Source of the DNA: an uncultured Dehalococcoidales bacterium
GTDB lineage: Bacteria > Chloroflexota > Dehalococcoidia > GIF9 > UBA5629
Reading direction: 5' to 3'
Assembly: GCA_964437795.1 (NCBI GenBank)
Contig: CAYTIC010000008.1
Coordinates: 61,407 to 125,406 of the forward strand
DNA length: 64,000 bases
In this document: positions 16,865 to 63,808 of the stretch, one piece after another
Layout of the letters: each line of letters begins with the position of its first letter
How positions within the stretch are numbered: position 1 is the stretch's first letter
Notes under the pieces: generated by a model
The model's input: only the letters and a program-made list of their open reading frames with translations
Database searches by the model: none
What the model was told of the DNA's origin: nothing
Translations under genes and position numbers: made by a program

Positions 16865-16876
16865 CTGCCTCCAAAA

Positions 16877-18632: not shown

Positions 18633-18647
18633 TATTGTAATGATAGC

Positions 18648-33385: not shown

Positions 33386-33539
33386 AAAGTTACTCCATGA
33401 TTATATTACCATATACTCATATTACTATATATTATATTGCCCTGGAGGTGGACTGTCAACAGGAAAGTGATAATCGTCTTGTAATTCATATTGTGCTGCT
33501 GTGCTAAAATATACGAAATATAATCGTTGCAGGATATAT

Positions 33540-43980: not shown

Positions 43981-44027
43981 AGTGATGATTATAGAACGTT
44001 TTATTCCGCCGAGCAGTTTATGCCCGC

Positions 44028-46895: not shown

Positions 46896-47789
46896 TCAAA
46901 ATGGAAGGGAGATTTTGAACAGGTTGAAGTCGGAGATATAGGGTAGCAGGCGCAGCGTTGCTACGATTAAGACCAGCGTGATCACCTCGCCCGCTTCGAT
47001 GAGCGCGCCGCAGCAATCACCCGTCAGCCCGCCGAAGATGCGGCTGAAGAGCAAACCCAGGCAATAAAGCAGGACGAAAAGCCCGGCCATGATCAACGGT
47101 CCGACGATCAGCCCGTTCATCACAATAGCCAGGGCGAGTGCAATGGCTGTGGCGCCGGCAAAGCCGCCCCATTCGGCATTTCTCTTGAGTGTGAAGAAGG
47201 AGCCGCTCTCTTTGGCGGCCGGGAAGATCAGGACCAGTCCGGTAATGGCCCAGCGGCTGAGAAGAGCAAAGGTCAGCAGCGCAGAAATGCTGATAGCCGC
47301 TGTAAGGCAAACGTACTTGGCCAGCAGCAACAGGCAGGCGGCGGTGATGCCGAAGGACCCTATCCTGGTGTCAGCCATGATCTCCAGCCGCTGGCTCCTG
47401 GTCTTGCCTGCAACCAGGGCGTCGCAGGTATCCATCAAACCGTCGATATGATGTGCCCCCGTGAGGACGGCCAGGGCAATCACCAGCAGGATGCCCGTGA
47501 CCGCGGTAGGTAAAAAGGCCCTGAATAAGATGTAAAGCAGCGCGAGCAGCAGCCCGATCACCAGCCCCACCAGGGGGAAATATACCGTGGAACGTCCGGT
47601 CAAACTGATCTCTTCATCAGGGGTGGACTCAGCGGGCATGAACAGCACGGTCTTCATCTCGGCCGATGCGTATTCCGTGCGCTGCTCTGTGGTCGGGTTG
47701 GACAGGCGGGTACGGCCCCCGGATTCGGCGATTTTTGATTTCGGCGACGGAAGTATGGTCAGGAACCGCAGGACGGCCCAGAAGCTCAT
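46896..47789 (-). CDS. cobS: Adenosylcobinamide-GDP ribazoletransferase (cobalamin synthase)
   Basis: Multi-TM CobS family. The start ATG at 47789 overlaps the cobT stop by 4 bp (ATGA). Confidence 0.8.
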   Translation of the reverse strand: MSFWAVLRFLTILPSPKSKIAESGGRTRLSNPTTEQRTEYASAEMKTVLFMPAESTPDEEISLTGRSTVYFPLVGLVIGLLLALLYILFRAFLPTAVTGILLVIALAVLTGAHHIDGLMDTCDALVAGKTRSQRLEIMADTRIGSFGITAACLLLLAKYVCLTAAISISALLTFALLSRWAITGLVLIFPAAKESGSFFTLKRNAEWGGFAGATAIALALAIVMNGLIVGPLIMAGLFVLLYCLGLLFSRIFGGLTGDCCGALIEAGEVITLVLIVATLRLLPYISDFNLFKISLPF

Positions 47790-48877
47790 GATATGGCCTC
47801 CCCCGGGATATCGGACACGCCGGCTCCTTCGAAGGTAGCCATGTCCCGCATGAGGTTGATCGAACACTCCGCTAAAAATATGCCCAGCGCCGCCCCGGTG
47901 CCCTCGCCCAGGCGCAGGTCAAGCTCCAGCAGCGGCCTCAGTCCCAGGTGTTTCAGACAGGCGGTATGTCCCTTCTCCGCCGATAGGTGGGCCGCTATCA
48001 GGTAATTTTTAATCTGCGGGCAGATGCCCGCCGCTATAAGGGCCGCTGCGCCCGAGATAAAGCCGTCGATTACCACCGGTATGCGGTTGGCTGCCCCGGC
48101 TATCATGGCCCCGGCCAGGCCCCCTATCTCGAAGCCGCCCACTTTCTCCAGTACTCCCAGGGCATCGGCGGGATCGGGCCTGTTGACCGACAGGGCCTGC
48201 TCGATGATCTTGATCTTGTGCTCCAGCTGTTCATCCCCGATGCCTGTGCCGCGTCCCGTCACCTCCCGCACCGTTTTACCGGTCATAGCCGCCGTGATGG
48301 CGCTGGCTGACGTCGTGTTGCCGATGCCCATATCACCGGTACCGAGTATATCCAGGCCTGCTTTCAACTCGTTCTCAACTATCTCCCGGCCCGCCAGCAG
48401 ACTATTTATTGCCTGGGCCCGGCTCATAGCCGGACCGGCGCTCATATCGCCGGTGCCGAAATCAATCATTTTACAAACTATGCCTTCGTACGACGGAAGG
48501 CCGCCTATCACTCCCATATCCACGATGATCACGCGTGCCCCGGCCATCCGCGCCAGGACGTTGATGGCGGCGCCCCCCGCGGCAAAGTTGAGAGCCATCT
48601 GGCTGGTGACCTCCTGCGGGTAGAGGCTGACGCCGCGGGCAGCTACTCCGTGATCGGCGGCCATGGTGATGATGACCTTGTCTTTCATACGCGGGATGAC
48701 CTCACCGCGTATGCCGGCGATTTGCGACGCCAGGTCCTCCAGCGTGCCGAGGCTGCCGCGCGGCTTGGTCAGGCTGTTCAGCCTGCGAAAGGCAGCTTCC
48801 CGGAAGGCCTCGTCGGGAGGGCTAACCCGGCTGACCAGGTCCTGCAACTTCCGTACGGCGTCTATTTCAGCGCTCAA
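47786..48877 (-). CDS. cobT: Nicotinate-nucleotide--dimethylbenzimidazole phosphoribosyltransferase
   Basis: SLGTLEDLASQIAGI N-terminus, and the full-length family pattern. Confidence 0.85.
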   Translation of the reverse strand: MSAEIDAVRKLQDLVSRVSPPDEAFREAAFRRLNSLTKPRGSLGTLEDLASQIAGIRGEVIPRMKDKVIITMAADHGVAARGVSLYPQEVTSQMALNFAAGGAAINVLARMAGARVIIVDMGVIGGLPSYEGIVCKMIDFGTGDMSAGPAMSRAQAINSLLAGREIVENELKAGLDILGTGDMGIGNTTSASAITAAMTGKTVREVTGRGTGIGDEQLEHKIKIIEQALSVNRPDPADALGVLEKVGGFEIGGLAGAMIAGAANRIPVVIDGFISGAAALIAAGICPQIKNYLIAAHLSAEKGHTACLKHLGLRPLLELDLRLGEGTGAALGIFLAECSINLMRDMATFEGAGVSDIPGEAIS

Positions 48878-49398
48878 TACTCAATCCCTCTGCGCTGGTG
48901 TATCCCTTCTGAAAAGGGGTGCTTGATCATGAGCATCTCGGTAACAAGGTCGGCGCGCCTGACTATTTCCTGCGGGGCCTTGCGCCCCGTAAGTATCAGC
49001 TCGACGTTGGCCGGTTTCATTTTTAACAGGTCCAGTATCTGGGGCAGGCTGACCAGGCCCCGCCAGTGGGCGATGAAAATCTCATCCAGCACCACGACAT
49101 CGTATTTCCCTCCGCTGAGCGCGCTCACGGCGAAATCGTAGGCCTGCCGTGTTTCCCGCTGCAATTCCTCTTCGCTCTTCTTGAAAAGGTCGCCCTTGCC
49201 GAACTGGATGATCTCGAAGGGTTTGTACTTATCCGCGAAGATATGCTCTCCCCCCGGCTGGGTCTTGAGGAACTGGATGAAGATGACTTTTAAACCCTGC
49301 GCGGAAGCCCGCAGGGCCTGTCCCAGCGCGGCGGTGGTCTTGCCCTTGCCGTCGCCGGTATAAACCTGTACCAGCCCTTTAAAATCCTGTTCAGCCAT
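48874..49398 (-). CDS. cobO: Cob(I)yrinic acid a,c-diamide (corrinoid) adenosyltransferase
   Basis: VQVYTGDGKGKTTAALGQALRA P-loop of the CobA/CobO/BtuR family. Confidence 0.8.
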   Translation of the reverse strand: MAEQDFKGLVQVYTGDGKGKTTAALGQALRASAQGLKVIFIQFLKTQPGGEHIFADKYKPFEIIQFGKGDLFKKSEEELQRETRQAYDFAVSALSGGKYDVVVLDEIFIAHWRGLVSLPQILDLLKMKPANVELILTGRKAPQEIVRRADLVTEMLMIKHPFSEGIHQRRGIEY

Positions 49399-49434
49399 AT
49401 GACCCTCCGTAAGTAATATTGTACAACATGGACG

Positions 49435-50517
49435 TCAGCCCGCTTTCCCGGCCATCATTGAAATAGCCTTAACCAGCTTCTGACAGTCCCCCATCCGGCG
49501 CGGCGAAATACGCACGTAGGCCGGCAGGCCGAAGGACGAGCAGTCCCGCACCAGGAACCCTTTATCCAGCAGGCGGCTTTTAAAATCGGCGGCGTTTCCG
49601 ACCTGCATGAGGAAGAAATGGGTATCCGTAGAGATTATTTTGTATCCCAGAGCGGCCAATCTGCGCGCCAGGTAGGCGCTGCATTTCTGTATCCTGGCAT
49701 TGCTCTGCCGCATATATCCGTCAACCCCGACGGCTGCTATGCCCGCCTGCTGGGCAGGGGAGCTTACGTTCCACGGCGGCCGCACCTTTTCCAGGTTGCC
49801 TATGATGTCCCGGCAGGCCAGGCCATAACCCAGGCGCAGGCCGGCCAGAGCGAAGTCCTTGGTCATAGACCGGACGACTAAAACGTTAGGCTGGCCTATC
49901 AGTGCAGCGGCGCCGGTACTTTCCTGTGTGAACGCCAGGTAGGCTTCGTCAAGGATTACCAGTGTGTCCGGCGATGCCTTCACCAGCCTGTGCACGTCCT
50001 CCCCGGAGAGCAGTTGTCCCGTGGGATTATTGGGATTGCACAGGAAGACGGCCTTCGGGTTGTGTCCTCGAATGAATTCAGCAAACCCGCCCGCGTCCAG
50101 TTGGAAGTCACGGTCCTCGAGCAGGTGATATTTAATGATCTCGGCCCCGGCAATACGGCCGGACAGTTCGTATTCTCCGTAAGTCGGCGATGGGACGACA
50201 ACCCTGTCACCCGCCGCCAGGTAGGCCAGGGCGGCCAGCCTTATGATCTCTGTCGAGCCGTTGCCTGCTACGATGTTTTCAGGAGCCACGTCCAGGTTTT
50301 TCGAGAGGGCTTCAACCAGTTCGCTTGAATGGGTATCCGGGTAGGACTCGATATCCGCGTTACGCAGGGCGAGGCGGACCCCGGGAGGCGGTCCGTAGGG
50401 ATTGCAGCAGGTGCTGAAGTCCATAACCCCGCCGGCGCCTTTCAGCCCGGCATGGCCCGCTCCGCCGTGTTCAACGGGGCATAGGCTTTTGATATGGGAA
50501 TTAGCGTGCAAGGCCAA
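49435..50517 (-). CDS. cobD: L-threonine-O-3-phosphate decarboxylase (aminotransferase class I/II fold)
   Basis: PLP-dependent class I/II pattern. The CobD assignment is supported by its operon context with cbiB. Confidence 0.7.
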   Translation of the reverse strand: MALHANSHIKSLCPVEHGGAGHAGLKGAGGVMDFSTCCNPYGPPPGVRLALRNADIESYPDTHSSELVEALSKNLDVAPENIVAGNGSTEIIRLAALAYLAAGDRVVVPSPTYGEYELSGRIAGAEIIKYHLLEDRDFQLDAGGFAEFIRGHNPKAVFLCNPNNPTGQLLSGEDVHRLVKASPDTLVILDEAYLAFTQESTGAAALIGQPNVLVVRSMTKDFALAGLRLGYGLACRDIIGNLEKVRPPWNVSSPAQQAGIAAVGVDGYMRQSNARIQKCSAYLARRLAALGYKIISTDTHFFLMQVGNAADFKSRLLDKGFLVRDCSSFGLPAYVRISPRRMGDCQKLVKAISMMAGKAG

Positions 50518-51436
50518 TAAACACCTCTATAGCGGCGACAATGATCGCCCATATACCCGCTGATGTCAGCATCACGGTCTGCGATTGCGTGACTGCGCCG
50601 ATGCAAAGTCTGGCGTTGCCGCCGGTCAGTGTATACTCGCCGCTTTTTTTCAGTTCGATGCCCAGCGAGCCGGCCATGGAGCACATGGTCCAACCCGCGT
50701 TGGGGCTTGGTGTCCTTGCATGCTGCGCCAGCATGGTACGCCAGCTCCCGCCGGCATCAGCGCGGCAAAGGGCCGACGCGGCTACGATCAGCAGCGCGCT
50801 CAGCCTGGATGGGATGAAGTTGAGCAAGTCGTCCAGACGTGCGGTGAATTTCCCCGTATATTCCCAGCGGCCCCGGTACCCGATCATGCCGTCGAAGGTA
50901 TTTACAACGCGGTATATGATGGCCCCCGGCAAACCCAGGACGGCGAAATAGAAAAGCGGCGCGATGAAGCTGTCGCAAAGGTTCTCTGCGCAGGACTCGA
51001 CAGCCGCCGAAATGAGCTGCTCGTTTGTTAAATCTGAGGTGTCGCGGCTGACCAGCGCCCGTGCCTTCAACCTGGCTTCCGCCGGGTCGCTGAGGGGCAG
51101 GCACAGCTTTACGTCTTCCACCGCCTGCCAGAGCCCTCTCAGTGCGAATGTATTTTTCAGCAGGTATGCAGACAGCACTATATAGATTATCTGGTTGAGA
51201 CCGAGCAGGTATTCGAGGCCGAGGTAGAGCGGGACGGTTACTATGGCGCAGGTAAAAATGACCATGGCTGCGCCGTAAATGAATTGCCTTCGCGGACCTG
51301 ATAACGGCTCGAATTTAAGCTGTAGGGAGATGAGGTTGCCCAGCCAGGCCACGGGATGCCAGGAGTTGGGAGCCTCGCCCATCAGCGCATCCAGCAGCAG
51401 CGCTCCGCACAGTATATACAGCCCCGAAAGTTCCAC
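50501..51436 (-). CDS. cbiB: Adenosylcobinamide-phosphate synthase (membrane)
   Basis: CobD/CbiB membrane-protein family pattern. It overlaps the neighbouring genes, consistent with an operon. Confidence 0.8.
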   Translation of the reverse strand: MELSGLYILCGALLLDALMGEAPNSWHPVAWLGNLISLQLKFEPLSGPRRQFIYGAAMVIFTCAIVTVPLYLGLEYLLGLNQIIYIVLSAYLLKNTFALRGLWQAVEDVKLCLPLSDPAEARLKARALVSRDTSDLTNEQLISAAVESCAENLCDSFIAPLFYFAVLGLPGAIIYRVVNTFDGMIGYRGRWEYTGKFTARLDDLLNFIPSRLSALLIVAASALCRADAGGSWRTMLAQHARTPSPNAGWTMCSMAGSLGIELKKSGEYTLTGGNARLCIGAVTQSQTVMLTSAGIWAIIVAAIEVFIGLAR

Positions 51437-52233
51437 TATGCGCGCTCCACTTTTTTTACCGATGTGACCAGCGCTGTGGGCAATCCGTTGACGGGGTGCG
51501 AAAAGATGGTCACGTCGAGGCCGAAAGCCTCTCTGAGGGTGGGTGAGTCTATGACTTCCTGCGGCCTGCCCTCTTTATATATGGCGCCGTCCTTGAGCAC
51601 AATAATCCTGTCGCCGTATTGCGAGGCCAGGTTGATATCGTGAAGCGCTGCCACAATAGTCAGCCCCTTTTCCAGGCAGAGCTTTTTAAGGAAATCCAAT
51701 ATACCGGCCTGGTAATTTATATCCAGGTTGGCCGTGGGCTCGTCCAGCAGCAGAATGCCTGCCTCCTGTGCCAGCGAGCGGGCGATGAGCACACGTTGAC
51801 GCTCGCCGCCGGACAGCTGGTTGACGCGCCGCCCGGCCAGCCGGCCGGTCTCCGTAGCCTCCATGGCGTTTGCTGCGGCCAGGATGTCGCTGCTGCCCTC
51901 GTAGCGGAGCAGTCCCAGGTGAGGAGTGCGTCCCATCAGCACGATCTCCATGGCCGTGAAAAGCTCGGGCAGGAAGGCGCCCTGCGGCATCAGGGCTATG
52001 TTGAGGGCGATATGTGTGCGGCTGCAGCTGCCCAGGGACCGGCCGTCCAGCAGTACAGCGCCGCTGTATGGCCGCAGCAGTCTGCACATCCCTTTCAAAA
52101 GAGTGCTCTTGCCGGACCCGTTGGGGCCTATCACCGTTAGAAATTCACCGGGTCGCGTATTCAGAGTGATGTCGTGAAGCACAGCCCGCTCGCCGTATCT
52201 GAAACATGCTTTCTCAAGAGATATGACAGCCAT
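51436..52233 (-). CDS. btuD: ABC transporter ATP-binding protein, corrinoid/iron-siderophore type
   Basis: Walker A GPNGSGKST, signature LSGGERQRV and Walker B LLLDEP. Confidence 0.75.
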   Translation of the reverse strand: MAVISLEKACFRYGERAVLHDITLNTRPGEFLTVIGPNGSGKSTLLKGMCRLLRPYSGAVLLDGRSLGSCSRTHIALNIALMPQGAFLPELFTAMEIVLMGRTPHLGLLRYEGSSDILAAANAMEATETGRLAGRRVNQLSGGERQRVLIARSLAQEAGILLLDEPTANLDINYQAGILDFLKKLCLEKGLTIVAALHDINLASQYGDRIIVLKDGAIYKEGRPQEVIDSPTLREAFGLDVTIFSHPVNGLPTALVTSVKKVERA

Positions 52234-53294
52234 CAGAACACCGCCTTTTTCTTCTGATTGAGCAGGTAAAGGAAAAAGGGAGCGCCTATGATGGCGGTGA
52301 TGATACCTACCGGTATCTCGGCGGGCGCCATGATGGTCCGGGCGGCTGTGTCAGCCAGTATCAGGAAGGCTGCCCCGCCCAGCAGGGACAGTGGCAGCAG
52401 CAGGCGGTAGTCCGGTCCGCAGATCATCCTCACGGCGTGGGGTATGATGATACCTACAAAACCGATGGCGCCGCAGAAGCACACGGCCGCGGCCGTAGCC
52501 AGTGTGGCCGCTATTAATATAATTATCTTGGTACGCTCGACATTTATGCCCAGTTGTTCGGCCTGATCTTCATCCAGTTGCATCACATTGAGCGGGCGCG
52601 CCGCGAGCAGCAGCACTATCGCGCCTGCCAGTATATAGGGTGTCATCACAGCCACACGCCACCAGTCCGCCAGAGCGAAAGTGCCCAGCAGCCAGAACAC
52701 GATACCATGTACCTTGTCGTTCGAGATAATGAGGAGGTAGGAAGTGATCGATGCTAAAAATGCCCCGATAGCTACGCCGCCTAATATGAGTGTAGTGACG
52801 GGCAGCGTGCGGCCGGTCCTGGCGATGGAGTAGACCGCTGCCACGCTGAATATGGCGCCCAGGAAGGCCAGTACCGGTATCAGGGCGGCCGGCACGGCAG
52901 CCGGAAGCAGGAATCCGGCGACTGCTCCCAGGGCTGCACCCTGAGAAACGCCGGTAAGATAGGGATCGGCCAATGGATTGCGGAACATGCCCTGGTAGGC
53001 CGCGCCGGCCACCGCCAGCGCAGCGCCTGTGAGGCCGGCCATCAAAATGCGCGGCAGGCGGATATCCCAGATAATCGTATTTAACACGGAGGGGTCGGCT
53101 CCTGTATTAGCCGGGTCAAACAGCCTGGCCTGTAAAACAGCCAGGATATCCTGCAGGGGAATGGCAGTGCTTCCGGTCGTGACTGCCCATAAAGCCACGG
53201 CAGCAAGCACCATGATGGCCAGGATTATGGCCAGCCGGCCGCGGCGCACCCTGGTACGATGCAGGTCAAGTTCGCTTTTAAGTGCAGTTTCCAT
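52233..53294 (-). CDS. btuC: FecCD-family ABC permease (corrinoid). The likely start is METALK at 53294.
   Basis: Ten TM helices in the FecCD family pattern. Confidence 0.75.
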   Translation of the reverse strand: METALKSELDLHRTRVRRGRLAIILAIMVLAAVALWAVTTGSTAIPLQDILAVLQARLFDPANTGADPSVLNTIIWDIRLPRILMAGLTGAALAVAGAAYQGMFRNPLADPYLTGVSQGAALGAVAGFLLPAAVPAALIPVLAFLGAIFSVAAVYSIARTGRTLPVTTLILGGVAIGAFLASITSYLLIISNDKVHGIVFWLLGTFALADWWRVAVMTPYILAGAIVLLLAARPLNVMQLDEDQAEQLGINVERTKIIILIAATLATAAAVCFCGAIGFVGIIIPHAVRMICGPDYRLLLPLSLLGGAAFLILADTAARTIMAPAEIPVGIITAIIGAPFFLYLLNQKKKAVF

Positions 53295-53319
53295 CGTTAG
53301 ATTGATTTTCAGCAGTTGC

Positions 53320-54246
53320 TCATTGCTCAGGTTTATTGAAAAGATCGGGGTGCAGGAACGATGCAGTTTGTTCCAGGGCCGATACACAGCGCGGGCTGTG
53401 CCGGTATATCAGGTCACCGTTGATCTTATATACCCGGCCGTTTTTAACGGCGGACGTGTTGCTCATACGTGGGTCGGTCGTAACGAATTTCCACAATGGA
53501 TCGCCTGAGTTATCCATGCTGGTCGGCACGATGATGACCTGTGGATCCGCGCTGATTATAGATTCAAAGCTCATGGAGCTGTGGCCGTTGATGGCCGAGG
53601 CGACATTAGTACCTCCTGCCACGCGGATGATGTCATCGATCAGTGTGGAGTTGCCGGCCACCATCATGGGATCGTTCCAGATCATCAGTAATGTACGAGG
53701 GCGTTGACCGGGTGTCAGGCCGGCGGTTACCGCCGATACCGCGTCAATGCGTTTCTGCAATAACGCGGTGAGTGTCGCGGCAGCTTTGTCGGCGCCGGCA
53801 AGGCTGCCGGTCAGCGTGATGTCGCGTATTACGCCTTCCACCGTTTTGGGATAGATTGAAACCACGCGGAAGCCCATTTTCTGCAGCTGCGGCGCTACGC
53901 TCTTATTGTGTATCTCGGAGGCGAGCACCAGGTCGGGCCTGAGCGCCACCGTCTTCTCGATGTCTACCGTGCTGAATCCTCCCACCCGGGCCTTGTTTTT
54001 AGCTGCCGGCGGATAGTTACAGTATTCCGTCACGCCCACCAGCCTGTCTTCCAGCCCCAGCGCGTAGACTATCTCGGTGTTGGCCGGCGCCAGGGATATT
54101 ATGCGCTCAGCGGGAGGCGCCGGTGCTATGGTACTGCCCGAGTCGTCGATCAGGTCCGCCGGTGCGGCGGGAACGGAGCATGCGCAAACGCAGAACAGAG
54201 CGGTCAGCACCAGGTAGCCGAAGGATTTGCCCCAGGTATTTTTCAT
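53320..54246 (-). CDS. btuF: Periplasmic corrinoid-binding protein (class III SBP) with a lipoprotein signal
   Basis: ISLAPANTEIVYALGL...LRPDLVL class III SBP signature. It is the first gene after the riboswitch. Confidence 0.7.
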   Translation of the reverse strand: MKNTWGKSFGYLVLTALFCVCACSVPAAPADLIDDSGSTIAPAPPAERIISLAPANTEIVYALGLEDRLVGVTEYCNYPPAAKNKARVGGFSTVDIEKTVALRPDLVLASEIHNKSVAPQLQKMGFRVVSIYPKTVEGVIRDITLTGSLAGADKAAATLTALLQKRIDAVSAVTAGLTPGQRPRTLLMIWNDPMMVAGNSTLIDDIIRVAGGTNVASAINGHSSMSFESIISADPQVIIVPTSMDNSGDPLWKFVTTDPRMSNTSAVKNGRVYKINGDLIYRHSPRCVSALEQTASFLHPDLFNKPEQ

Positions 54247-54262
54247 TTCTCACCCCTGCAAT

Positions 54263-54450
54263 TAATAAAAAACCCCTGCTCCGGGAGCAGGGGGATCGTT
54301 AATAAATAACAAATCCCGCCTCCTTACTCCGCGGAGGCAGCTTTTCAGCAGGGTGGCGTTCTGACTTTCACAGTAGGCGGGACTGTACCGGTATTGCGCC
54401 GGTTTGCACTCCTTTTAAGCCTGCGGTCACCCGCGGGCGCCCTGCTTCAA
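54263..54450 (-). ncRNA. Cobalamin (B12) riboswitch with an intrinsic-terminator expression platform
   Basis: The minus strand reads ...AGUGCAAACCGG...CAGUCCCGCCUACUGUGAAAGUCAGAACGCCACCC. This matches the conserved GGUGnAAnUCC / CCCGCcACUGU / B12-box AGUCAGgAgaCCkGCC elements. The hairpin CCCCUGCUCC-cgg-GGAGCAGGGG followed by UUUUUAUU at 54295-54263 precedes the btuF start. Confidence 0.6.
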
Positions 54451-54519
54451 ATATTCAATTGGCCTAAAGCATATAGTTTTGGCCGCCCGATGTCAAAATA
54501 TTCCCGTACGGCATATTCG

Positions 54520-54549
54520 TTGCTATTGCGGGAACCTTAACGCTATAAT
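54520..54549 (+). promoter_or_regulatory. Candidate sigma70-type promoter (TTGCTA-18nt-TATAAT) for the glycosylation locus
   Basis: Hexamers read directly. A GAGG site and the ATG at 54569 follow closely. Confidence 0.35.
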
Positions 54550-54568
54550 CTATCGCGAGGTCAGATAT

Positions 54569-57500
54569 ATGGCGTTAAAAAAGATACCGTCCTGGGTCAT
54601 CGTCCTGTTATTGCTCATAGTAATCGTGTCTCTGGCGCTTTGGCTGAGGGTCGTGCTCCCGTACAACCAGGTGTTTGTCGGGGACTGGGTAAAGATGACG
54701 GGTGTGGACGCGTATTATTACATGCGGCTGGTCGATAATCTGATGAAGCACTTCCCGCATGTAACACAGTTCGATCCGTATTTGCAGTTTCCGGGTGGTT
54801 GGAATACAGGCGGGTCCCCCGATTTCTTCGCCTATTTCATGGGGGGTATTATCTGGCTGGTCAGCCTGGGACAGGCTAACCAGCATACTGTGGATGTAAT
54901 ATCGGTATATATACCTCCTTTGCTGGCGGTACTGACCATACTGGCCGTATTTGTTATCGGGGTACTGCTGGGCAGCAAGTGGCTGGGGTTGATGTCTGCA
55001 GGGTTGCTGGCCATCATCCCGGGGGAGTTTCTCAACAGGTCGCTCCTCGGCTATACCGACCATCACATCGCCGAGGTATTGTTCTCCACCTGCATCATGC
55101 TTTTTGTGTTCCTGGCGATAAGGGCTGGACGGGGAAGGCGGTTTGAGGATTCGATCAAGGGTGGCTGGCAGGGTATAGGGAAACCTGTCCTGTTCGGCAT
55201 ACTGGCCGGGTTATTTATGGGCGTTTATATGCTGACCTGGGCCGGTGCGCTGATGTTCGCCCTGATCATATTTATATTTATCGTGGTTCAGGCCGTTATC
55301 GACCATCTGAATGACCGTCCGTCCGATTATCTGGGTATTCTGGGCTTTTGCATGTTCGGGACGGCCCTGGCACTGTACCTGCCGTGGGCGCGCGGTACGA
55401 TGACTATACTGGCCCTTGTTGCCGGTCTACTAGTTTCCGTGCTTCTGCCTTTTCTCTCAAGGTTGATGAACGGCAGGCGACTGAAGACGTTTTACTATCC
55501 TGTTGCGATCGTGGGGCTGGCTGTACTGGGCACATTTCTGGTGGCGCTGATAAGCCCGTCGCTATTACAGGATATGCTGGGCAGCCTGGCCAGCATTTTT
55601 GTCTGGCCGTTCGGGACAACCGTGATGGAGATGCAGCCCCTGCTTATACAGCAGGGCGATTTCACCTTTGCCGTAGCCCTCGGCAACTATATGCTGGCCT
55701 TTTTCGTCAGCCTTGTGTGCATAGGCGTGTTGTTTTACCAGGTGATAAAACAGGGGCAGCCGGATAAGGCGCTGCTCTTGATCTGGAGCATAATAATACT
55801 CTTGTCGGCGCTGTCCATGAGGCGCTATGCCTATTATTTTGCGGTGAACGTGGCATTGCTTACGGGCTATCTCTGCTGGATCCCGCTTAACGCCCTGATC
55901 AAGAAAAGAGAAGCCTCATCCGCGGCGGTGGCAGCTGTTAAAGCTTCTTCCAGAGGGAAAAAGGCCTCGGCAAAGCGGGCCCGGCAGGCGAAGCCTGCAA
56001 AGCAGGGCAACTACGCCATTGTAATACTGCTGGCCGCCATTCTGCTGCTGGTTTATTACCCTAACATCGGGCCGATGCCCGACGGCCAGAAGCCTGCTAT
56101 CGACCTCGCCACGCGGCCGTTATTCGCTCCCTCAAATGCCTGGTGTGAAGCTGTGGACTGGCTGCGGACAAGTACCCCCGAGCCTTTCGGCAAGTCGGAT
56201 GCTTACTATGGATTATATAAGCCCGTCAAAGCGCAGGGAGGCTTTGAATACCCCGCCGGCGCCTACGGGACCCTGGCGTGGTGGGATTACGGCTACTGGA
56301 TAGCCCGCATCGGCCAGCGTCCTCCTTTGACGAATCCCGGGACCGGCGACATCGGGGCCGCATACTTTTTTACCGCCCAGGATGGGCCTTCGGCTGCGCG
56401 GTCAATAAACAATTTTGGTACACGTTACGTTGTCGTTGACAACGAGATAGCCGCCTATGAAGGCAAATTCTATGCGCTGGCAGCGCTGAGCGGTTCAAGC
56501 TACACCAGGTATTACGACTTATTCATAAAGAAACAGAATAATCAGTATGTATCGTCCATGCTTTTCTACCCGGAATATTACCGCACTACAGTTGCACGGC
56601 TGTATAACTTCGACGGCAAGGCCGTGGCACCGGACAGCGTAAGTGTTATCGAGTTCAGGATGGTCACAGGGCAGGACGGCGCCAGGTATAAGGAGATAAT
56701 CGATGAGAAGGAATTCGGCTCCCTGGAAGCCGCTCAAAAGTTCATCAGCGAGAACAAAAACAAGAATTATATTATAGCGGGGAAAGATGTCAACGTAAGT
56801 CCTGTGCCGCTGGACGAGCTAAAGGACTTCAGCCTCGTGTACAGCTCGAACAGGAAGGTGTCCACAGGTTCAAAAACTCAGCCCAATATCAAGATATTTG
56901 AGTATAAGAGAGATGCAGTTCCGCTTACGGGCGATTGGAACGGTGATAAAAAGGCGGAGCTCGGCCTCTGGCAGTCCGATGGCTATTTCAAGCTGGATAA
57001 AAATGGCGATGGAAGTCCGGTGAAAGTCGGTCCGTTCGGATATTCGACCGATGTCCCGCTTGTGGGAGACTGGAATGGGGATGGCAGGGATGAGATCGGA
57101 GTTTACCGTCCATCCGATTTGTGTTTTTACCTGGATTACAACGGAAACGGCGCCTGGGATGGGGAAAACGGGGATAAAAAGTTAGGGCCCTTCGGCTTCG
57201 CTTTTACTGACATCCCGGTAGCGGGTGACTGGAATGGGGACGGCACATGCGAAATCGGGGTATGGCATCATGCGCAGGGTGAAACGGACTGCTATTTTTA
57301 TCTCGATGTCAACGGAGACGGGAAATGGGATCCCGCAAACAAAGACGTTAAAATCGGCAAGCTGGGAAAGGCAGGTGACGTGCCGATTGCCGGCGATTGG
57401 AACGGGGACAGCCGGGATGAAGTGGGTGTCTGGGAACCGTCGAGCCGGTATTTCTACCTTGAGAAAGATGGGAAAGGCGTTTCGGACGCTGCCGGGGAAA

Positions 57501-57688
57501 ATCTAAAGCTCGGGCCGTACGGTGAGAGCTACGATACGCCTGTAAGGGGCAACTGGGACGGCGGCAATAAGGACCTGGTAGGTATGTGGGACCCGTATAC
57601 GAGGCTTTTCCATTTGAATATAGGCGGGGATGGAAAATGGGAAGATAACCGGAGCAATGTCCTGGCGAATTCATTGAGTGGTCAATAG
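54569..57688 (+). CDS. STT3/AglB/PglB-type oligosaccharyltransferase with a C-terminal FG-GAP-like repeat (beta-propeller) domain
   Basis: A 13-TM N-terminal domain with a DxD-like loop (GVDAYYYMRLVD) and the diagnostic WWDYGYWI motif. The C-terminal roughly 260 aa contain five or more tandem G-D-W-N-G-D-G-x-x-E-x-G-V-W / D-x-N-G-D-G repeats. Confidence 0.7.
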   Translation: MALKKIPSWVIVLLLLIVIVSLALWLRVVLPYNQVFVGDWVKMTGVDAYYYMRLVDNLMKHFPHVTQFDPYLQFPGGWNTGGSPDFFAYFMGGIIWLVSLGQANQHTVDVISVYIPPLLAVLTILAVFVIGVLLGSKWLGLMSAGLLAIIPGEFLNRSLLGYTDHHIAEVLFSTCIMLFVFLAIRAGRGRRFEDSIKGGWQGIGKPVLFGILAGLFMGVYMLTWAGALMFALIIFIFIVVQAVIDHLNDRPSDYLGILGFCMFGTALALYLPWARGTMTILALVAGLLVSVLLPFLSRLMNGRRLKTFYYPVAIVGLAVLGTFLVALISPSLLQDMLGSLASIFVWPFGTTVMEMQPLLIQQGDFTFAVALGNYMLAFFVSLVCIGVLFYQVIKQGQPDKALLLIWSIIILLSALSMRRYAYYFAVNVALLTGYLCWIPLNALIKKREASSAAVAAVKASSRGKKASAKRARQAKPAKQGNYAIVILLAAILLLVYYPNIGPMPDGQKPAIDLATRPLFAPSNAWCEAVDWLRTSTPEPFGKSDAYYGLYKPVKAQGGFEYPAGAYGTLAWWDYGYWIARIGQRPPLTNPGTGDIGAAYFFTAQDGPSAARSINNFGTRYVVVDNEIAAYEGKFYALAALSGSSYTRYYDLFIKKQNNQYVSSMLFYPEYYRTTVARLYNFDGKAVAPDSVSVIEFRMVTGQDGARYKEIIDEKEFGSLEAAQKFISENKNKNYIIAGKDVNVSPVPLDELKDFSLVYSSNRKVSTGSKTQPNIKIFEYKRDAVPLTGDWNGDKKAELGLWQSDGYFKLDKNGDGSPVKVGPFGYSTDVPLVGDWNGDGRDEIGVYRPSDLCFYLDYNGNGAWDGENGDKKLGPFGFAFTDIPVAGDWNGDGTCEIGVWHHAQGETDCYFYLDVNGDGKWDPANKDVKIGKLGKAGDVPIAGDWNGDSRDEVGVWEPSSRYFYLEKDGKGVSDAAGENLKLGPYGESYDTPVRGNWDGGNKDLVGMWDPYTRLFHLNIGGDGKWEDNRSNVLANSLSGQ

Positions 57689-57737
57689 TCCCGGTGAAGC
57701 GGGAGGATGGATTAATATCCGGTGGGTTTTCTGTCAT

Positions 57738-59225
57738 ATGAGCAATCGACCGATAACGGATCCTCAAAAATTTGCCGGCGATATCTTTTGGGTCGCCGCT
57801 TCAAATTTTGCCGTGCCCCTGGTTGGATTAATTACGCTCCCCGCCATGACGAAGAACTACGCAGATGAAGTATATGCCGTGTGGATGCAGTCTATTTTGG
57901 CGGTCGGGCTCCTGGCATTTATCGTAAGTTTATACCTGGGATACTCTGTAGTAAGGTTCCTGGCTGCTGAGGATGATAAAGCAGTGCGGAGGCGCGCACT
58001 GGGAGCAATATTGTGGCCCACTCTTGCAGTCTCATCCCTGTCCATCGTTATTTCGATATTGCTCCGGCAGTGTTTCTCTCAAATTCTGTTCGGCAATTCT
58101 GATTATGCTTACCTCGTCCCGTTAGTTTTTATCTGGTCCGCGGCTGAGGCCGTATTTTCAATTTTAGTCGCCTATTTGCTGGCAAGGCGCAGGATCAAGG
58201 CCATGTCCATTATCCAGATAGGCCTGGCAGTGTATAGAATGGCTGTTATAGTCATACTGGCAACATTGGGATACGGGCTGGCGTGGATTATCGGATTTGT
58301 CATAGCTGGCATAATACTTGCCGTCATAGTCATTTTTTGGATGATCGTGAAGGAGGTAGGCTGTCCTCTGCCTGCCATAAAAGGATTAAATGGCTATCTG
58401 GCCCTCAGCATTCCGTTGATACCAAGCGGGATCTTTTTCTGGGTTATCAGTGCCAGCGACCGTTTTTTTATCACAAATATCCTCAGCTTGAGCCAGACCG
58501 CCATTTACGCCGCGTCTTTTGCCATAGGTAGTTTGATATTCTTTTTTTATTATCCCATCCAGTTGGTGCTGTTACCTGTTTTATCCAGGCTGTGGGAGCA
58601 AAAGGAGTCTGCAAAGGTCAGGAACTACCTGGAATATTCGAACAAGTTATTTGTGACAGTGGCCATCCCGTCAGCCGCGGGTCTCTTCGTTCTTTCACAG
58701 CCGATACTGGCAATTCTCACCACACCTGACTATTTAGCCGGGGGCGGCCTGGTTCTGTTGATCGCCCTGGCAACCATACTGAACGGTTTATATCAAATTA
58801 ACTGTTCAGTAATCTTTCTGGTCAAGCAGACCAGATGGCTGATGCCTATTATAGCTACAGCCGCAATTGCCAATGTCGGTCTTAACCTGGCTTTGATTCC
58901 ACTTCTCGGCGTAACGGGAGCCGCAATTGCCGCCGTTATAGCTTATTTGATTCTGTCGGTCACCATAACGGTTTGGGCGAGAAAGGTAACCGGCTTCACC
59001 GTAAGTATTAAATTTATGGTCAAGGTTGTCGTGGGCGCGTTGTTGATGGCCGGGATAGTCAGTTTCATTCAAATAGGCGGTATATTGGGTATAATCGCTG
59101 TAGCTGCTGCCGGCGTGATCATATTCGCATTATGGATGTGGCTGACAAGGGCTTTTGTACCGGAGGATATCAAGCTCATCAGGGAGATTGCTGCCGGGTT
59201 AAGGCAGGGCACACTGCTGAGATGA
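57738..59225 (+). CDS. Wzx-type oligosaccharide flippase (polysaccharide biosynthesis protein; MOP superfamily)
   Basis: About 14 TM helices with the MATE-like/Wzx pattern. The start ATG at 57738 (MSNRPI) sits in a CATATG context. Confidence 0.65.
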   Translation: MSNRPITDPQKFAGDIFWVAASNFAVPLVGLITLPAMTKNYADEVYAVWMQSILAVGLLAFIVSLYLGYSVVRFLAAEDDKAVRRRALGAILWPTLAVSSLSIVISILLRQCFSQILFGNSDYAYLVPLVFIWSAAEAVFSILVAYLLARRRIKAMSIIQIGLAVYRMAVIVILATLGYGLAWIIGFVIAGIILAVIVIFWMIVKEVGCPLPAIKGLNGYLALSIPLIPSGIFFWVISASDRFFITNILSLSQTAIYAASFAIGSLIFFFYYPIQLVLLPVLSRLWEQKESAKVRNYLEYSNKLFVTVAIPSAAGLFVLSQPILAILTTPDYLAGGGLVLLIALATILNGLYQINCSVIFLVKQTRWLMPIIATAAIANVGLNLALIPLLGVTGAAIAAVIAYLILSVTITVWARKVTGFTVSIKFMVKVVVGALLMAGIVSFIQIGGILGIIAVAAAGVIIFALWMWLTRAFVPEDIKLIREIAAGLRQGTLLR

Positions 59226-59261: not shown

Positions 59262-60536
59262 ATGCCCAAGTTAGCCATTATTGATCAATACGTTAGCGCC
59301 GGTGGGGTGGAACGTTTCATCCACGGCCTTGTTGGGGGAATTCTGGAGCAGTCCGAATTCCAGGACTGGGACGTTACAATAATTTTGAATAGATTTAACA
59401 CTGCCGGAAATGACGTAAGGTGGCCGGAACACCTGGCCGGTTCAAATTTACAACTACGTTATTTGTTCGACGGTAAATGGGGAAAATATATTAGAAGGAT
59501 TGTCGAACCGGGAAGGATATGGGGTATACCGGGGACAGGGATTATCAGATCAGGTTTATTTTTATTGGTTGCCCGGTTGTGGATTGAATCGGAATGCCGG
59601 CGGCAGAGATATGATGTAATCTATTTTCCGGGCCCCTATCTAATCGGTTGCCCGAATATTCCCATGCCCCTAGTGACGACCATGCATGATTTCAACTGGA
59701 AGCACAAGGATCTGCATTCGGTATCTTTCCTGGGCAGCCAATTGTTGGAACTGCAAATACCCGGATGGCTTCGCAAATGCTTTCGGGCCGTTGTGTCCAG
59801 CGAATTTATTGCCGGCGAATTAAAACATTTTTATCCATCATTCGGCAGTAAGGTTCGAACGGTGCGGGTTGGGACACCTTCGGCGAATCTTATTCCCACA
59901 GATGGACAATTGCAGGCTTATAAGGTAAATGCGGAGCTGCCGCCCCAATTTCTTTTGACGGTTGGCTGGATCATGCCTCATAAAAACCAGAAGGTGCTGC
60001 TCGAGGCTTTGCATGAACTGAGAAATAGAGGTATTAAAATCCCTATTATTTTCACGGGACCTAACAGTGCGAACCTCCGACCCGGCGTTAAAGAACCGAA
60101 TCCGAAATATATGGAAGAGACAATTCAATTGGCGGATCGCCTCGGTTTAAAGTACGGTCAGGATTATTTTGGCCTGGGCTATGTGAGTGACTTCGATCTG
60201 GATTGTCTCTACAGGTTGTCCAGGGCGCTAATAGCCCCTGCACTGTATGAGGCAGGCAGTTTTCCTATTCTCGAGGCCATACGGGCGCGCTGTCCGGTAC
60301 TCTGTTCAAGAATTCCTCCTTACATGGAGCAGGATAATCTGCTGGGCAACAATTTTTGGGTATTTAATCCAAATGATGCCTCTTCAATTGCTGAAAATAT
60401 TGCGCAGGTATTGTCCAACCCTGAGCTTGCCGGTGACAGGGCAGCGAAGGCCGCGGAAATGCTCCGGGAGAACTATAATTGGTCCAGAGCCGCTGCCGGA
60501 TACTTAGACATATTCCGAAGCGCACTCGAGAAATAA
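59262..60536 (+). CDS. Glycosyltransferase family 4 (GT-B, retaining)
   Basis: The C-terminal GT1/GT4 motif EAGSFPILEAIRARCPVLCSRIPP (E-x7-E-like). Confidence 0.7.
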   Translation: MPKLAIIDQYVSAGGVERFIHGLVGGILEQSEFQDWDVTIILNRFNTAGNDVRWPEHLAGSNLQLRYLFDGKWGKYIRRIVEPGRIWGIPGTGIIRSGLFLLVARLWIESECRRQRYDVIYFPGPYLIGCPNIPMPLVTTMHDFNWKHKDLHSVSFLGSQLLELQIPGWLRKCFRAVVSSEFIAGELKHFYPSFGSKVRTVRVGTPSANLIPTDGQLQAYKVNAELPPQFLLTVGWIMPHKNQKVLLEALHELRNRGIKIPIIFTGPNSANLRPGVKEPNPKYMEETIQLADRLGLKYGQDYFGLGYVSDFDLDCLYRLSRALIAPALYEAGSFPILEAIRARCPVLCSRIPPYMEQDNLLGNNFWVFNPNDASSIAENIAQVLSNPELAGDRAAKAAEMLRENYNWSRAAAGYLDIFRSALEK

Positions 60537-60566
60537 TAGTGATTTATAGAAGTCAGGGATAAATTA

Positions 60567-61913
60567 ATGGTTGAACATCCATTGAACATTGTCGTAGCAG
60601 CGGAGACCATCCCGGCGCTAAACTGCGGCCTGGGATATTTCCTGTTTAACGGAATCACAAAATTGGCTGCTGCAAAACCGTCCTGGCAATTCACAGTGGT
60701 TGCCCCATCGAGTTTTAAGGAACTATCCGATATCCATCAGCCCAATATTAAAATTTTATATTGGGACCTTGGTTTTCTCAGGAGAACAGTCATATCGGTT
60801 CTAAAGACTCTAATGCCGTCGACCAGGCCCGATATAACAGAACAATTCAGCTTTGCGGTGAGCCTTTTATCCCGTCGCATGCCGTTCCGCCGGATGCGGG
60901 CCAGTATGGGTGATCTCAAGTCCATTTACGGATCATTCAAAAATGTGGACCTGGTATGGATGCCGCACTATTCGATCATTCAGCCGGACCAGTTCGCGGC
61001 GTCAGAAAACCTGAGCACCGTAGCATGTCCAATACTGCTGACAATGCATGATATTCACCCTGTATTTTTCCCGGATAGTTGGAGCCGGGAGAGTATGCAT
61101 AGTTTCTGGAACTCATTTGTACCCTTCGCGCGTAACTGTAAAAGAATAATGACTCACTCCGAGTTCCAGAAGGAAATGATGGTTAAACATCTCGGGATTA
61201 ATCCTGAAGTAATTAAAGTTGTATCGATCCCATCGCTGATCGATTTTGAAATAGTAAATGGGAAATCCAGCAGTAGTGAGATAAAGGAGGTTTTGGAACG
61301 GTTCGGCATTACTGCTCCTTTCGTCTTTTATCCCGGGGCGGGCGGGCACATACACAAGAACCACATGCGTTTGTTTATGGCATGGGCTGAGCTGTATAAA
61401 ACATTGGGTAGCACCTGCCCGACACTTGTTTGTACAACAAAGGGCCATCTCTGGCCGGCTCTCAAGGAACAGATAAATGCGCTGGGAATATCGGATAAAG
61501 TGATATTCACAGATACGGTAGACACGGATACGCTGATTAAACTATACGCCGGCTGTGCCTTTGTAATCGTGCCGACCCTCTTCGAAGGAGGTGGCAGCGG
61601 CCCCGTGGTGGAGGCGTTGCTGGCCGGGAAGCCCGTTGCCTGTTCGAATATTGCGCCTATCCTGGAGCAACTGCGTGCTTTAAACCTGGATTTAGCCGAG
61701 CGTTACCTTGAGTTCTTCGATCCTTTGTCAGTGGATTCAATCGTTCGCACAACGTTGTCGGTGATTAACAGGCTGCCTGAGCTTGAAAGCAGGGAGCCTG
61801 TAGATGGCAGGCGGGTGTTGATCAGGATGGAATCATTGTGGGGCGAATGGACATCTGCGTATACGGAGCAAATGATGGAGCTTACTGCGAAAGAATCTGA
61901 AAGGCGGTTATAA
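60567..61913 (+). CDS. Glycosyltransferase (GT4-like)
   Basis: A GT-B C-terminal domain pattern (FEGGGSGPVVEALLAGKPVACSNIAP). Confidence 0.6.
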   Translation: MVEHPLNIVVAAETIPALNCGLGYFLFNGITKLAAAKPSWQFTVVAPSSFKELSDIHQPNIKILYWDLGFLRRTVISVLKTLMPSTRPDITEQFSFAVSLLSRRMPFRRMRASMGDLKSIYGSFKNVDLVWMPHYSIIQPDQFAASENLSTVACPILLTMHDIHPVFFPDSWSRESMHSFWNSFVPFARNCKRIMTHSEFQKEMMVKHLGINPEVIKVVSIPSLIDFEIVNGKSSSSEIKEVLERFGITAPFVFYPGAGGHIHKNHMRLFMAWAELYKTLGSTCPTLVCTTKGHLWPALKEQINALGISDKVIFTDTVDTDTLIKLYAGCAFVIVPTLFEGGGSGPVVEALLAGKPVACSNIAPILEQLRALNLDLAERYLEFFDPLSVDSIVRTTLSVINRLPELESREPVDGRRVLIRMESLWGEWTSAYTEQMMELTAKESERRL

Positions 61914-61918
61914 ATAGT

Positions 61919-62596
61919 ATGAGCGGATCACATCAAGGTATATCGGTAAAATCCCGTAATATCCTGATACTGGGCGCCGGCGGCATGGCACGGGAAGTCG
62001 GCTGGCTGATCAACGATATAAACAGGGCAGGCCGGGAATCGTGGAATCTTGTCGGGTATATGGAGCATGGGGGCGCGCGGAAAGGATTATTAATGAATGG
62101 GATACCCATCGTCGGACCTGATGAAATTCGTCAGTATCTTCCTGATCTATATGCGGTTATTGCTATTGGTGATCCTAAAATTAAAGAACGGGTTGTCACG
62201 GAGGCGGAGGTATTGGGCTGCAAATTTGCCACGCTGATACATCCAAGCGTGAGATATGATCCGTCGACTGTTGTGATTGCTCCAGGGTCTATAATTTGTG
62301 TTGGCAGCATTATTACAGTAAACGTAACTATAGGTATGCATGTTATTGTTAATAACGATTGCACTGTAGCTCATGATTGTATAATAGAAGACTATGTTAC
62401 CCTTTCCCCCGGTTGTCATGTTTCGGGACATAATATCTTGCGCCGGAGTTCATTTTTGGGGACGGGATCCGTAACAGCGGAAAAATGCGAAATAGGCGAT
62501 CATGCAATTATCGGCGCGGGGGCAGTGGTGGTGTGTAATATACCCGGCAATGTCACCGCGGTAGGGGTGCCTGCAAAACCTGTAAATAATAAATAG
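61919..62596 (+). CDS. Sugar N/O-acetyltransferase of the PglD/NeuD hexapeptide-repeat family
   Basis: The N-terminal Rossmann-like ILILGAGGMAREV followed by left-handed beta-helix hexapeptide repeats. Confidence 0.7.
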   Translation: MSGSHQGISVKSRNILILGAGGMAREVGWLINDINRAGRESWNLVGYMEHGGARKGLLMNGIPIVGPDEIRQYLPDLYAVIAIGDPKIKERVVTEAEVLGCKFATLIHPSVRYDPSTVVIAPGSIICVGSIITVNVTIGMHVIVNNDCTVAHDCIIEDYVTLSPGCHVSGHNILRRSSFLGTGSVTAEKCEIGDHAIIGAGAVVVCNIPGNVTAVGVPAKPVNNK

Positions 62597-62689
62597 CAAC
62601 TGATTGTTTCATGTAATATTATTGCGAAAAGTGCTAAGGTGGGCCTTCATTGGGAGGCGTGAAATGATTGTCTCAACAGGGTATTAGAT

Positions 62690-63808
62690 ATGCGAAAAAA
62701 GATTTCAGTGGCAAGTCCGTCATTTGCCGGAAATGAAAAAAAATATGTGAAGGACTGTATGGATACCGGCTGGATATCCTCCGCCGGCAAATATGTGGGG
62801 GAATTCGAGACAAAGTTCGCTGATTTTTGTAACGTTAAAAATGCATTGACCTGCTCAAATGGCACAGTTGCGCTGCATCTTGCGCTCAGGGCATACGATA
62901 TTGGCCCTGCTGATGAAGTTATTGTTCCGACGTTAACATATGTTGCCACGGCAAACGCTGTGACATATTGCGGGGCCGTTCCCGTGTTCGTGGATATCGA
63001 TCCGGACACCTGGAACATCGATGCGGGGAAAATCGAGGAAAAAATCACCCCGAAGACCAAAGGTATAATTGTTGTTCATATTTATGGACATCCGGTGGAT
63101 ATGGACCCGATATTAAAAATAGCGGAAAAACATAATCTTTTTGTTATTGAGGACGCAGCAGAGGCACATGGAGCTCTCTACAAAAATCGAGTCGCCGGCG
63201 GTATTGGGGATATCGGGACCTTCAGCTTTTTCGGCAACAAGCTGATCACAACAGGCGAGGGCGGGATGATAACAACCGATAATGACGAATTGGCTGCCAA
63301 GATGCGGTTGTTGAAAGGGCAGGGCGTTGATCCCGATCGTAGATACTGGTTTCCCGTAGTCGGCTATAACTACAGGATGACAAACATACAGGCAGCTATC
63401 GGATTGGCCCAATTAGAGAAAATAGAGTGGCACATTAAGAGGAGAAGGCAGGTCGCCGATTTATACTACAAGCATTTGGGCGGCCTTGCCGATTTTATAA
63501 TTCTGCCAGTGGAAAAAGAATGGGCCAGGAATTCATTCTGGATGTTCACCATAATCCTGAAAGATACCGTTAAGATGTCCCGGGACGGGTTCATGGATGA
63601 GCTGCAAAAGCTCGGGATTGAAACGAGGCCTGTTTTCCATCCCATGCATGTCTTGCCGCCGTACAGGGAGCTTCAGAAAGGTGACCATTTCCCTGTTGCG
63701 GATAAGGTTAGCAGCCGGGGTTTAAATATACCCACTCACGCCAACCTCAGTGCAGCGGATATTGAATATGTGTGTGACGCTGTCAGGAAGCTTCTGTCCG
63801 GCAGTTAA
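62690..63808 (+). CDS. DegT/DnrJ/EryC1/StrS-family PLP-dependent sugar aminotransferase (PglE-like)
   Basis: TLTYVATANAV, DAAEAHGA and the lysine motif FSFFGNKLITTGEGGM. Confidence 0.85.
   Translation: MRKKISVASPSFAGNEKKYVKDCMDTGWISSAGKYVGEFETKFADFCNVKNALTCSNGTVALHLALRAYDIGPADEVIVPTLTYVATANAVTYCGAVPVFVDIDPDTWNIDAGKIEEKITPKTKGIIVVHIYGHPVDMDPILKIAEKHNLFVIEDAAEAHGALYKNRVAGGIGDIGTFSFFGNKLITTGEGGMITTDNDELAAKMRLLKGQGVDPDRRYWFPVVGYNYRMTNIQAAIGLAQLEKIEWHIKRRRQVADLYYKHLGGLADFIILPVEKEWARNSFWMFTIILKDTVKMSRDGFMDELQKLGIETRPVFHPMHVLPPYRELQKGDHFPVADKVSSRGLNIPTHANLSAADIEYVCDAVRKLLSGS

Follow-up and report, generated by a model that had tools for sequence, protein, structure and literature searches.

Single-subunit oligosaccharyltransferases (OSTs) serve as glyco-engineering tools and as models for how the eukaryotic OST complex gained accessory substrate-binding subunits. 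The reference enzyme among archaea is AglB-L of A. fulgidus (AfAglB-L; 3WAJ, 3WAK, 5GMY, 7E9S), which ends in small peripheral beta units and has no propeller. Among propellers, that of UmbA4 binds a teichuronic-acid-like polymer through pockets located on and between its blades, its calcium-type loops being conserved and its pocket residues divergent (PMC13274773). The Dehalococcoidia, finally, have been described as bacteria with archaea-like envelopes and with archaeal surface machinery gained horizontally (bioRxiv 10.1101/2025.02.02.636118). Here we consider a 64-kb stretch of contig CAYTIC010000008.1 from an uncultured Dehalococcoidales bacterium, referred to as the window, and in it a gene for an AglB-type OST (archaeo_STT3; 54569..57688, forward strand). 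Its product has the GT-C domain, soluble domain and catalytic motifs in common with AfAglB-L. It differs in stemming from a bacterial rather than an archaeal lineage and in the addition of a predicted five-bladed propeller of approximately 255 residues. Both parts are of kinds already known, and annotation pipelines already call the gene an OST. The literature searched yielded no papers on AglB in Dehalococcoidia, on fusions of an OST with a propeller or FG-GAP domain, or on the archaeal-type AglB family in bacterial metagenome-assembled genomes (MAGs).

The gene and its tail occupy one open reading frame (54479..57688, forward strand), free of stops and frameshifts, which encodes 1069 residues when read from a mechanical TTG start at 54479. 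The true start is almost certainly the ATG at 54569, because the resulting 1039-residue product is 100% identical to an NCBI protein and because the N-termini of homologues (M-x-x-K-x-IPSW) align there. Two residue numberings are consequently in use, one counted from the TTG, as in an earlier note on this DNA, and one from the ATG; the WWDYG motif, for example, begins at residue 601 in the former and 571 in the latter. That note had allowed for the tail being an annotation artefact. The continuous frame and the identical NCBI protein place OST and propeller in frame with one another, and the limits it had proposed for the repeat region, 56900-57688, are correct to within approximately 12 nucleotides.

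The catalytic part resembles, in sequence and in model, a complete AglB-type OST which is apparently catalytically competent. The NCBIfam family TIGR04154 (archaeo_STT3) was matched at 571.8 bits against a cut-off of 450, covering residues 44-810 of the protein and positions 2-741 of the 831 in the family model, and scores for Pfam STT3 (62.3 bits, cut-off 24.5) and AglB_core-like (59.8 bits, cut-off 27) likewise exceeded their thresholds. The best relative of solved structure found by sequence is AfAglB-L (3WAJ, E = 2e-51), aligned over residues 11-641 in ATG numbering. In the same numbering, the motifs aligned to AfAglB-L are GVD47AYYY, TD164HH166, TVME354M, W571WDYG575 and D624...K633, and across an alignment of 113 homologous sequences each of these positions is either invariant or conserved to at least 90%. 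Their respective roles (first acidic, D-x-H, TIXE-type, WWDYG and DK) we take to be those known from published AfAglB work. A full-length AlphaFold2 model (predicted local distance difference test, pLDDT, 89.8; predicted TM-score, pTM, 0.86) shows a multi-helix membrane domain and, after it, an external domain of mixed alpha/beta structure. When this model was compared to the PDB with Foldseek, AfAglB was returned first (7e9s_A, E = 1.2e-31, TMt 0.67), followed by eukaryotic STT3 and then PglB.

Based on the modelled helices and the 3WAJ alignment, the multi-helix transmembrane GT-C domain is assigned to 54569..56068 (ATG residues 1-500), where D47, D164/H166 and the TVME354 loop motif are found. 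The extracytoplasmic AglB soluble domain is assigned to 56069..56911 (residues 501-781) and includes the WWDYG motif at nucleotides 56279-56293 as well as D624...K633, ending with the strand IKIFEY. Between the last transmembrane helices lies a basic, low-complexity loop rich in Lys, Ala and Ser (KKREASSAAVAAVKASSRGKKASAKRARQAKPAKQ; approximately 55905-56025, ATG residues 446-485 or thereabouts), which is modelled at a pLDDT of 50-59 and is much longer than its counterpart in A. fulgidus AglB-L. The full name of TIGR04154, 'oligosaccharyl transferase, archaeosortase A system-associated', is one which NCBI puts on MAG homologues of this protein; the last part of the family model is unmatched in the window protein, and the propeller stands at the tail position. 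No archaeosortase gene was found within the window, nor did any of its open reading frames end in a PGF-CTERM-like tail.

Following the soluble domain are exactly five repeat units, located at TTG residues 812-856, 857-909, 910-965, 966-1017 and 1018-1069, which correspond to nucleotides 56912-57685. The units are 45-56 residues long, share 29-58% pairwise identity and each carry the motif G[DN]W[ND]G once (TTG residues 818, 863, 916, 972 and 1024). Their mean pairwise local alignment score was 112.8, as compared to 24.5 +/- 1.7 in 300 shuffles of the same residues (z = 51), and local alignment revealed no resemblance to the upstream 780 residues. Tandem Repeats Finder detected no DNA-level repeat in 56500-57800, and the protein repeats are therefore old and diverged rather than recently duplicated. 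The earlier note was thus right to see tandem repeats here, while its count of five or more, at roughly 45 residues apiece, is narrowed to five units of somewhat variable length.

An AlphaFold2 model of TTG residues 808-1069, based on an alignment of 121 sequences, was confident (pLDDT 91.6, pTM 0.90) and all-beta. Its 20 strands make up five four-stranded blades, one per repeat, which close into a five-bladed beta-propeller, a fold the earlier note had anticipated for this region. An integrin-type propeller of seven blades, in which degenerate ones would have gone unnoticed, was also considered and was rejected, as the five repeats account for all 20 strands and as short homologues, described below, end at the junction. 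Each blade features two loops of the D-x-N-G-D-G type, one between strands A and B and the other between C and D. The strict calcium motif D-x-[DN]-x-[DN]-G-x-x-[DE] occurs in four of these ten loops (ATG residues 834, 856, 887 and 913), with six degenerate copies, and is absent from the 775-residue OST core. All blades lie on the forward strand. Blade 1 (56912..57046; DAVPLTGDWNGDKKAE...VKVGPFGYS) was delimited by the repeat alignment and the AlphaFold2 model. Both loops of blade 2 (57047..57205; DWNGDGRDE and DYNGNGAWD) fit the strict motif, and both loops of blade 3 (57206..57373), which additionally contains a variable insertion between strands B and C (HHAQGETD), carry the calcium-type motif. 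In blade 4 (57374..57529) the loop motifs are degenerate (DWNGDSRDE and EKDGKGVSD), and blade 5 (57530..57685; NWDGGNKDL and NIGGDGKWE), after which the stop codon follows at 57686-57688, is the most diverged. Judging from their motifs, the D-x-N-x-D-G loops probably bind calcium. To this extent the calcium-binding pattern proposed by the earlier note is present in the loops, though its strict form is confined to a minority of them and the assignment is made at the level of the motif.

A Foldseek search with the propeller model placed UmbA4 at the top (E = 8.7e-9), then ITFG2, and then the N-acetylglucosamine (GlcNAc) lectins PVL and PAL. Integrin propellers were also among the matches, and generic five-bladed propellers ranked after the lectins. 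The sole sequence match of the propeller in the PDB was again UmbA4 (E = 4e-4), through repeats of the form GD(F/W)NGDGRD(D/E). Among the 121 closest relatives of the tail, 65 matched Pfam FG-GAP_3 at E <= 1e-3, the best of them at 2.3e-11.

Whether such a tail replaces part of an AglB protein or extends it can be judged from its homologues. The 120 best fell into two length classes, one of approximately 780 residues and the other of approximately 1000-1075. In alignment, the short homologues end at or just past the strand IKIFEY, which is where blade 1 starts in the long ones. In the model, only KRDA separates the last strand of the core (residues 774-779) from the first strand of the propeller (residues 784-788), a linker of 4-5 residues. 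On the evidence of alignment and model, the propeller is an addition and the canonical soluble domain is kept in full. The earlier note had left open a C-terminus either replaced or extended; extension is upheld, and replacement is not, given that nothing is missing from the AglB core, the soluble domain or the catalytic motifs and that short orthologues stop at the junction. A search of 80 related loci for propeller remnants behind the short-form genes found none, and the window contained neither a second AglB paralogue nor any other protein with this propeller repeat. Four of the homologues (P0084, P0090, P0110 and P0087) carry other C-terminal additions at the position of the propeller, either fn3-like or consisting of fn3_2 together with FG-GAP-like repeats. 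The C-terminus of the bacterial AglB family is, as these sequences present it, a hot spot for adding extracellular beta modules.

Close relatives of the OST were labelled as Dehalococcoidia, Dehalococcoidales or Chloroflexi MAGs, and farther members of the family as Phycisphaerae, Planctomycetes, Bryobacterales and Vicinamibacteria. The enzyme is of the archaeal AglB type, yet its entire close family is found in bacterial MAGs, mostly of Dehalococcoidia. A preprint reports that archaellum genes were transferred from Methanotecta archaea to the same bacterial classes. The propeller fusion itself was found in approximately 25 homologues (41-77% identity), all of them apparently Dehalococcoidia, in agreement with the lineage-specific fusion which the earlier note had envisaged. 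It was present at one of 80 species-representative loci and, among the other loci in that comparison, only at L001 and L002, which duplicate a single MAG locus. An exhaustive comparison of a junction-spanning query to 1.84 billion cluster representatives produced 23,015 matches at E <= 1e-3, drawn partly by the propeller module alone; four of the best 150 matches crossed the junction, two of these being fragments. Elsewhere, the propeller module occurs stand-alone or fused to PKD, fn3, GEVED, RHS, CHAP, Kelch and other extracellular domains. A widespread module with many fusion partners, it is rarely joined to an OST. At L001 (10001-15501 of JAQUQM010000002.1, GCA_028716085.1, a Dehalococcoidia MAG), a long AglB of 1051 residues with a propeller is followed 8 nucleotides later by a short AglB of 778 residues, a tandem pair which is absent from the window.

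Two aspects of these comparisons bear on the history of the fusion. Firstly, propeller and core have diverged in step across 24 fused homologues (42-75% and 40-81% identity, respectively) and are nearly equally conserved (mean column conservation 0.69 and 0.72). These figures indicate that the fusion is old, with both parts inherited together vertically and under purifying selection. Secondly, a neighbour-joining tree of the OST core does not separate long forms from short ones but intersperses them. Several short forms of the clade to which the window belongs end in ...KKDVIPLT, ...IPAIGD or ...TPPAGD, so that a stop codon comes directly after the first strand of blade 1, and one short form (P0018) occupies precisely the locus at which the long forms are found. 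The genome with this short form (L085) is collinear with the window in DNA over 46590-56922, at approximately 77% identity, and collinearity ends 10 nucleotides into blade 1; with long-form loci, collinearity runs on to approximately 57645. Because the tree is interleaved, because stubs of blade 1 remain, because a short form occupies the same locus and because collinearity breaks at 56922, these sequences point to clean loss of the propeller more than once, in sister lineages. The breakpoint is a recombination border between a conserved upstream anchor and a variable island of glycan genes, both of which are described below.

Assigning a function to the propeller is less straightforward. As AglB topology puts the C-terminal domain outside the membrane, the propeller is expected on the extracytoplasmic side, held close to the catalytic soluble domain, where it would form an accessory binding module adjoining that domain. 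We tentatively favour, at a little less than even chances, a calcium-stabilised glycan-binding module which keeps the enzyme attached to its donor or product or to the envelope. Calcium in the D-x-N-x-D-G loops would probably stabilise the propeller, which would most likely act as a lectin on a conserved carbohydrate feature. Candidate ligands are an envelope glycopolymer, glycans which an acceptor or S-layer protein already bears, and the proximal part of the lipid-linked glycan, which is conserved. By binding, the propeller may retain the enzyme at the site of its donor, its product or the envelope, with a gain in substrate concentration nearby or in the occupancy of sites. The module appears dispensable for basic catalysis, since orthologues without a propeller persist at the same locus.

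A lectin-like role is favoured because the nearest relatives of known function are lectins; the PDB entry titles of PVL and PAL give GlcNAc as their ligand. The part in acceptor or glycan recognition which the earlier note suggested is plausible, and the kinship to lectins speaks for it. The same module is also attached to toxins and cell-wall enzymes, where a targeting role would be expected. As the propeller is conserved and the neighbouring glycan genes vary, its ligand should be a conserved feature rather than variable outer sugars. A propeller which reads the variable outer glycan was accordingly considered and is disfavoured, its conservation being like that of the catalytic core while downstream genes differ among long-form loci.

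Several observations weigh against a glycan-binding, calcium-stabilised module. The strict calcium motif is missing from six of the ten loops. Pfam FG-GAP_3 scored below its cut-off of 26.9 bits, at 20.6 for the whole window protein and 23.7 for the isolated tail. On this account, and with five blades in place of seven, the FG-GAP or integrin-alpha-like pattern described in the earlier note is retained only in the sense of an FG-GAP-like propeller, for which the confident AlphaFold2 model and the matches to lectin propellers argue. Furthermore, binding of proteins is also known of FG-GAP propellers, and the top Foldseek matches include integrins and ITFG2 (KICSTOR); a conserved propeller beside differing glycan genes is equally in keeping with a protein partner and with a conserved sugar.

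These last two points are shared by the foremost alternative, namely that the propeller is a protein-binding module which docks the OST, in the manner of integrin-alpha or ITFG2, onto acceptor proteins of the S-layer or elsewhere on the surface, or onto a component of the envelope or secretion machinery. A module as conserved as the catalytic core in spite of varying glycan genes would suit a conserved protein partner, and large secreted proteins are encoded nearby, at 41338-46199. We nevertheless regard docking onto a protein as somewhat unlikely, as the closest relatives of the propeller in both sequence and structure are the lectins UmbA4, UmbA, PVL and PAL, and as no partner could be identified, no co-varying neighbour gene being common to the long-form loci.

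Less probable still is a structural spacer or envelope tether, in which a rigid body stabilised by calcium would place, anchor or protect the enzyme under the S-layer with no direct part in substrate choice. It is the calcium-type loops and core strands, not the surface loops, which are most conserved; unrelated fn3-like beta modules stand at the same position in other members of the OST family; and the module has been lost repeatedly from a gene which was itself kept, all of which would be in keeping with such a role. Conservation at the level of the core across 40-80% divergence, however, exceeds what a passive spacer would need, and the targeting role expected of this module on toxins and cell-wall enzymes does not suggest a spacer either. 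The weakest alternative, two genes merged by frameshift, sequencing error or chimeric assembly, was rejected as having next to no chance of being correct, for no point was found in its favour and against it stand the continuous reading frame, the full identity of the 1039-residue protein in NCBI, the junction IKIFEYK(K/R)D(V/A)(I/V)P(L)xGDWNG, found alike in approximately 25 independent homologues which come from different assemblies and are 41-77% identical, the return of the fusion as single alignments in the junction-spanning search, and a full-length model which is confident across the boundary of core and propeller.

Returning to the glycan-binding module, a more far-reaching proposal is that the propeller is built into the enzyme so as to read the S-layer, or else the glycan which that enzyme uses as donor or yields as product, and that it would make the single-subunit bacterial AglB processive or couple it to envelope assembly, as accessory subunits do for the eukaryotic OST. 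We would call this improbable. Were it true, the repeated clean loss at the edge of the glycan-gene island would mark a switchable specificity module in an archaeal-type N-glycosylation system acquired by Dehalococcoidia. If, on the other hand, the propeller is merely a structural add-on, the fusion would amount to ordinary domain accretion. An AglB with a lectin-like propeller and sister orthologues without one, at the same locus, offer a natural comparison for donor use, acceptor use and site occupancy, and they point to an archaeal-type N-glycosylation locus of Dehalococcoidia which has scarcely been studied.

The surroundings of the gene are partly conserved. The window aligned with Dehalococcoidia-type MAG contigs at 75-81% DNA identity, with synteny running from cobalamin salvage through btuFCD to aglB, and on these grounds, too, very probably derives from a Dehalococcoidia bacterium. 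The conserved upstream anchor (46590..54246, reverse strand), which comprises cobalamin salvage genes and a BtuFCD-like ABC transporter and is divergent from the OST, keeps its synteny in relatives whether their AglB is long or short. Downstream, on the forward strand, lies a gene for a Wzx/MurJ-like polysaccharide flippase (57678..59225; Pfam Polysacc_synt_3 and Polysacc_synt), the mechanical GTG start of which overlaps the OST stop codon; its actual start is likely an ATG near 57738, and a blastn match to a related locus (L083) begins at 57731. A glycan-synthesis stretch on the same strand (59262..63808) then encodes two GT4 glycosyltransferases (59262-60536 and 60567-61913), a PglD-like acetyltransferase (61919-62596) and a DegT/PglE-like aminotransferase (62690-63808). 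Based on these assignments, the OST, flippase, glycosyltransferases, acetyltransferase and aminotransferase plausibly form a protein-glycosylation cluster, and the PglD-like and DegT/PglE-like genes beside an archaeal-type OST suggest that the glycan contains a di-N-acetylated sugar of the bacillosamine type. Long-form genomes do not all have the same glycan genes downstream.

On the reverse strand, two genes encode large secreted proteins which are candidate surface glycoproteins. One (41338-43980) is a BNR/sortilin-like protein of 880 residues with a signal peptide, a Pro-rich stalk and a C-terminal membrane anchor, and the other (44028-46199) is a protein of 723 residues with a He_PIG Ig domain. 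Farther away, at 33501-35018 on the forward strand, a 505-residue protein belongs to glycoside hydrolase family 10 (xylanase-type). The first 20 kb of the window (1-20000) have a GC content of 0.39-0.50, as compared to 0.52-0.60 further on, and encode on the reverse strand a 900-residue protein with an N6-methyltransferase domain and a restriction-enzyme N-terminal domain (4873-7575) as well as a protein combining Prim-Pol, AAA_25 and winged-helix domains (8967-10775). This part of the window is probably an integrated mobile element.

Relative to known systems, the propeller may be compared to four groups. The first comprises the accessory lumenal subunits of the eukaryotic OST. Ost3/Ost6 (TUSC3/MagT1) and the ribophorin-associated malectin are non-cytoplasmic, bind acceptor polypeptide or glycan, and modulate the efficiency of the OST. 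These are separate subunits with unrelated folds, and the likeness is one of functional analogy, with no homology claimed. The second group consists of other five-bladed propellers, namely tachylectin-2 (1TL2), the catalytic domains of GH43 and GH32, and the olfactomedin domain, which are 5-10% identical to the window propeller and have no repeat motif in common with it; the catalytic residues of GH43 and GH32 are absent from the window propeller. In the third group, the Psathyrella lectins PVL and PAL and the integrin-alpha propellers have seven blades. They have the FG-GAP-type repeat and its D-x-[DN]-x-D-G loops in common with the window propeller (Foldseek E = 6e-5 to 3.5e-4). Their TM-scores, however, reach only 0.43-0.48, and the window domain is distinguished by two calcium-type loops per blade. 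The closest solved relatives, at approximately 21% identity, are the C-terminal lectin propellers of UmbA4 and UmbA from the umbrella toxin particles of Streptomyces (9OEE, 8W20). UmbA4 has more blades, a site between blades 5 and 6 being described in its paper, as compared to the five modelled here. It also belongs to a secreted toxin particle in which pocket residues diversify, whereas the propeller of the window is carried by a membrane enzyme and is conserved among its orthologues.

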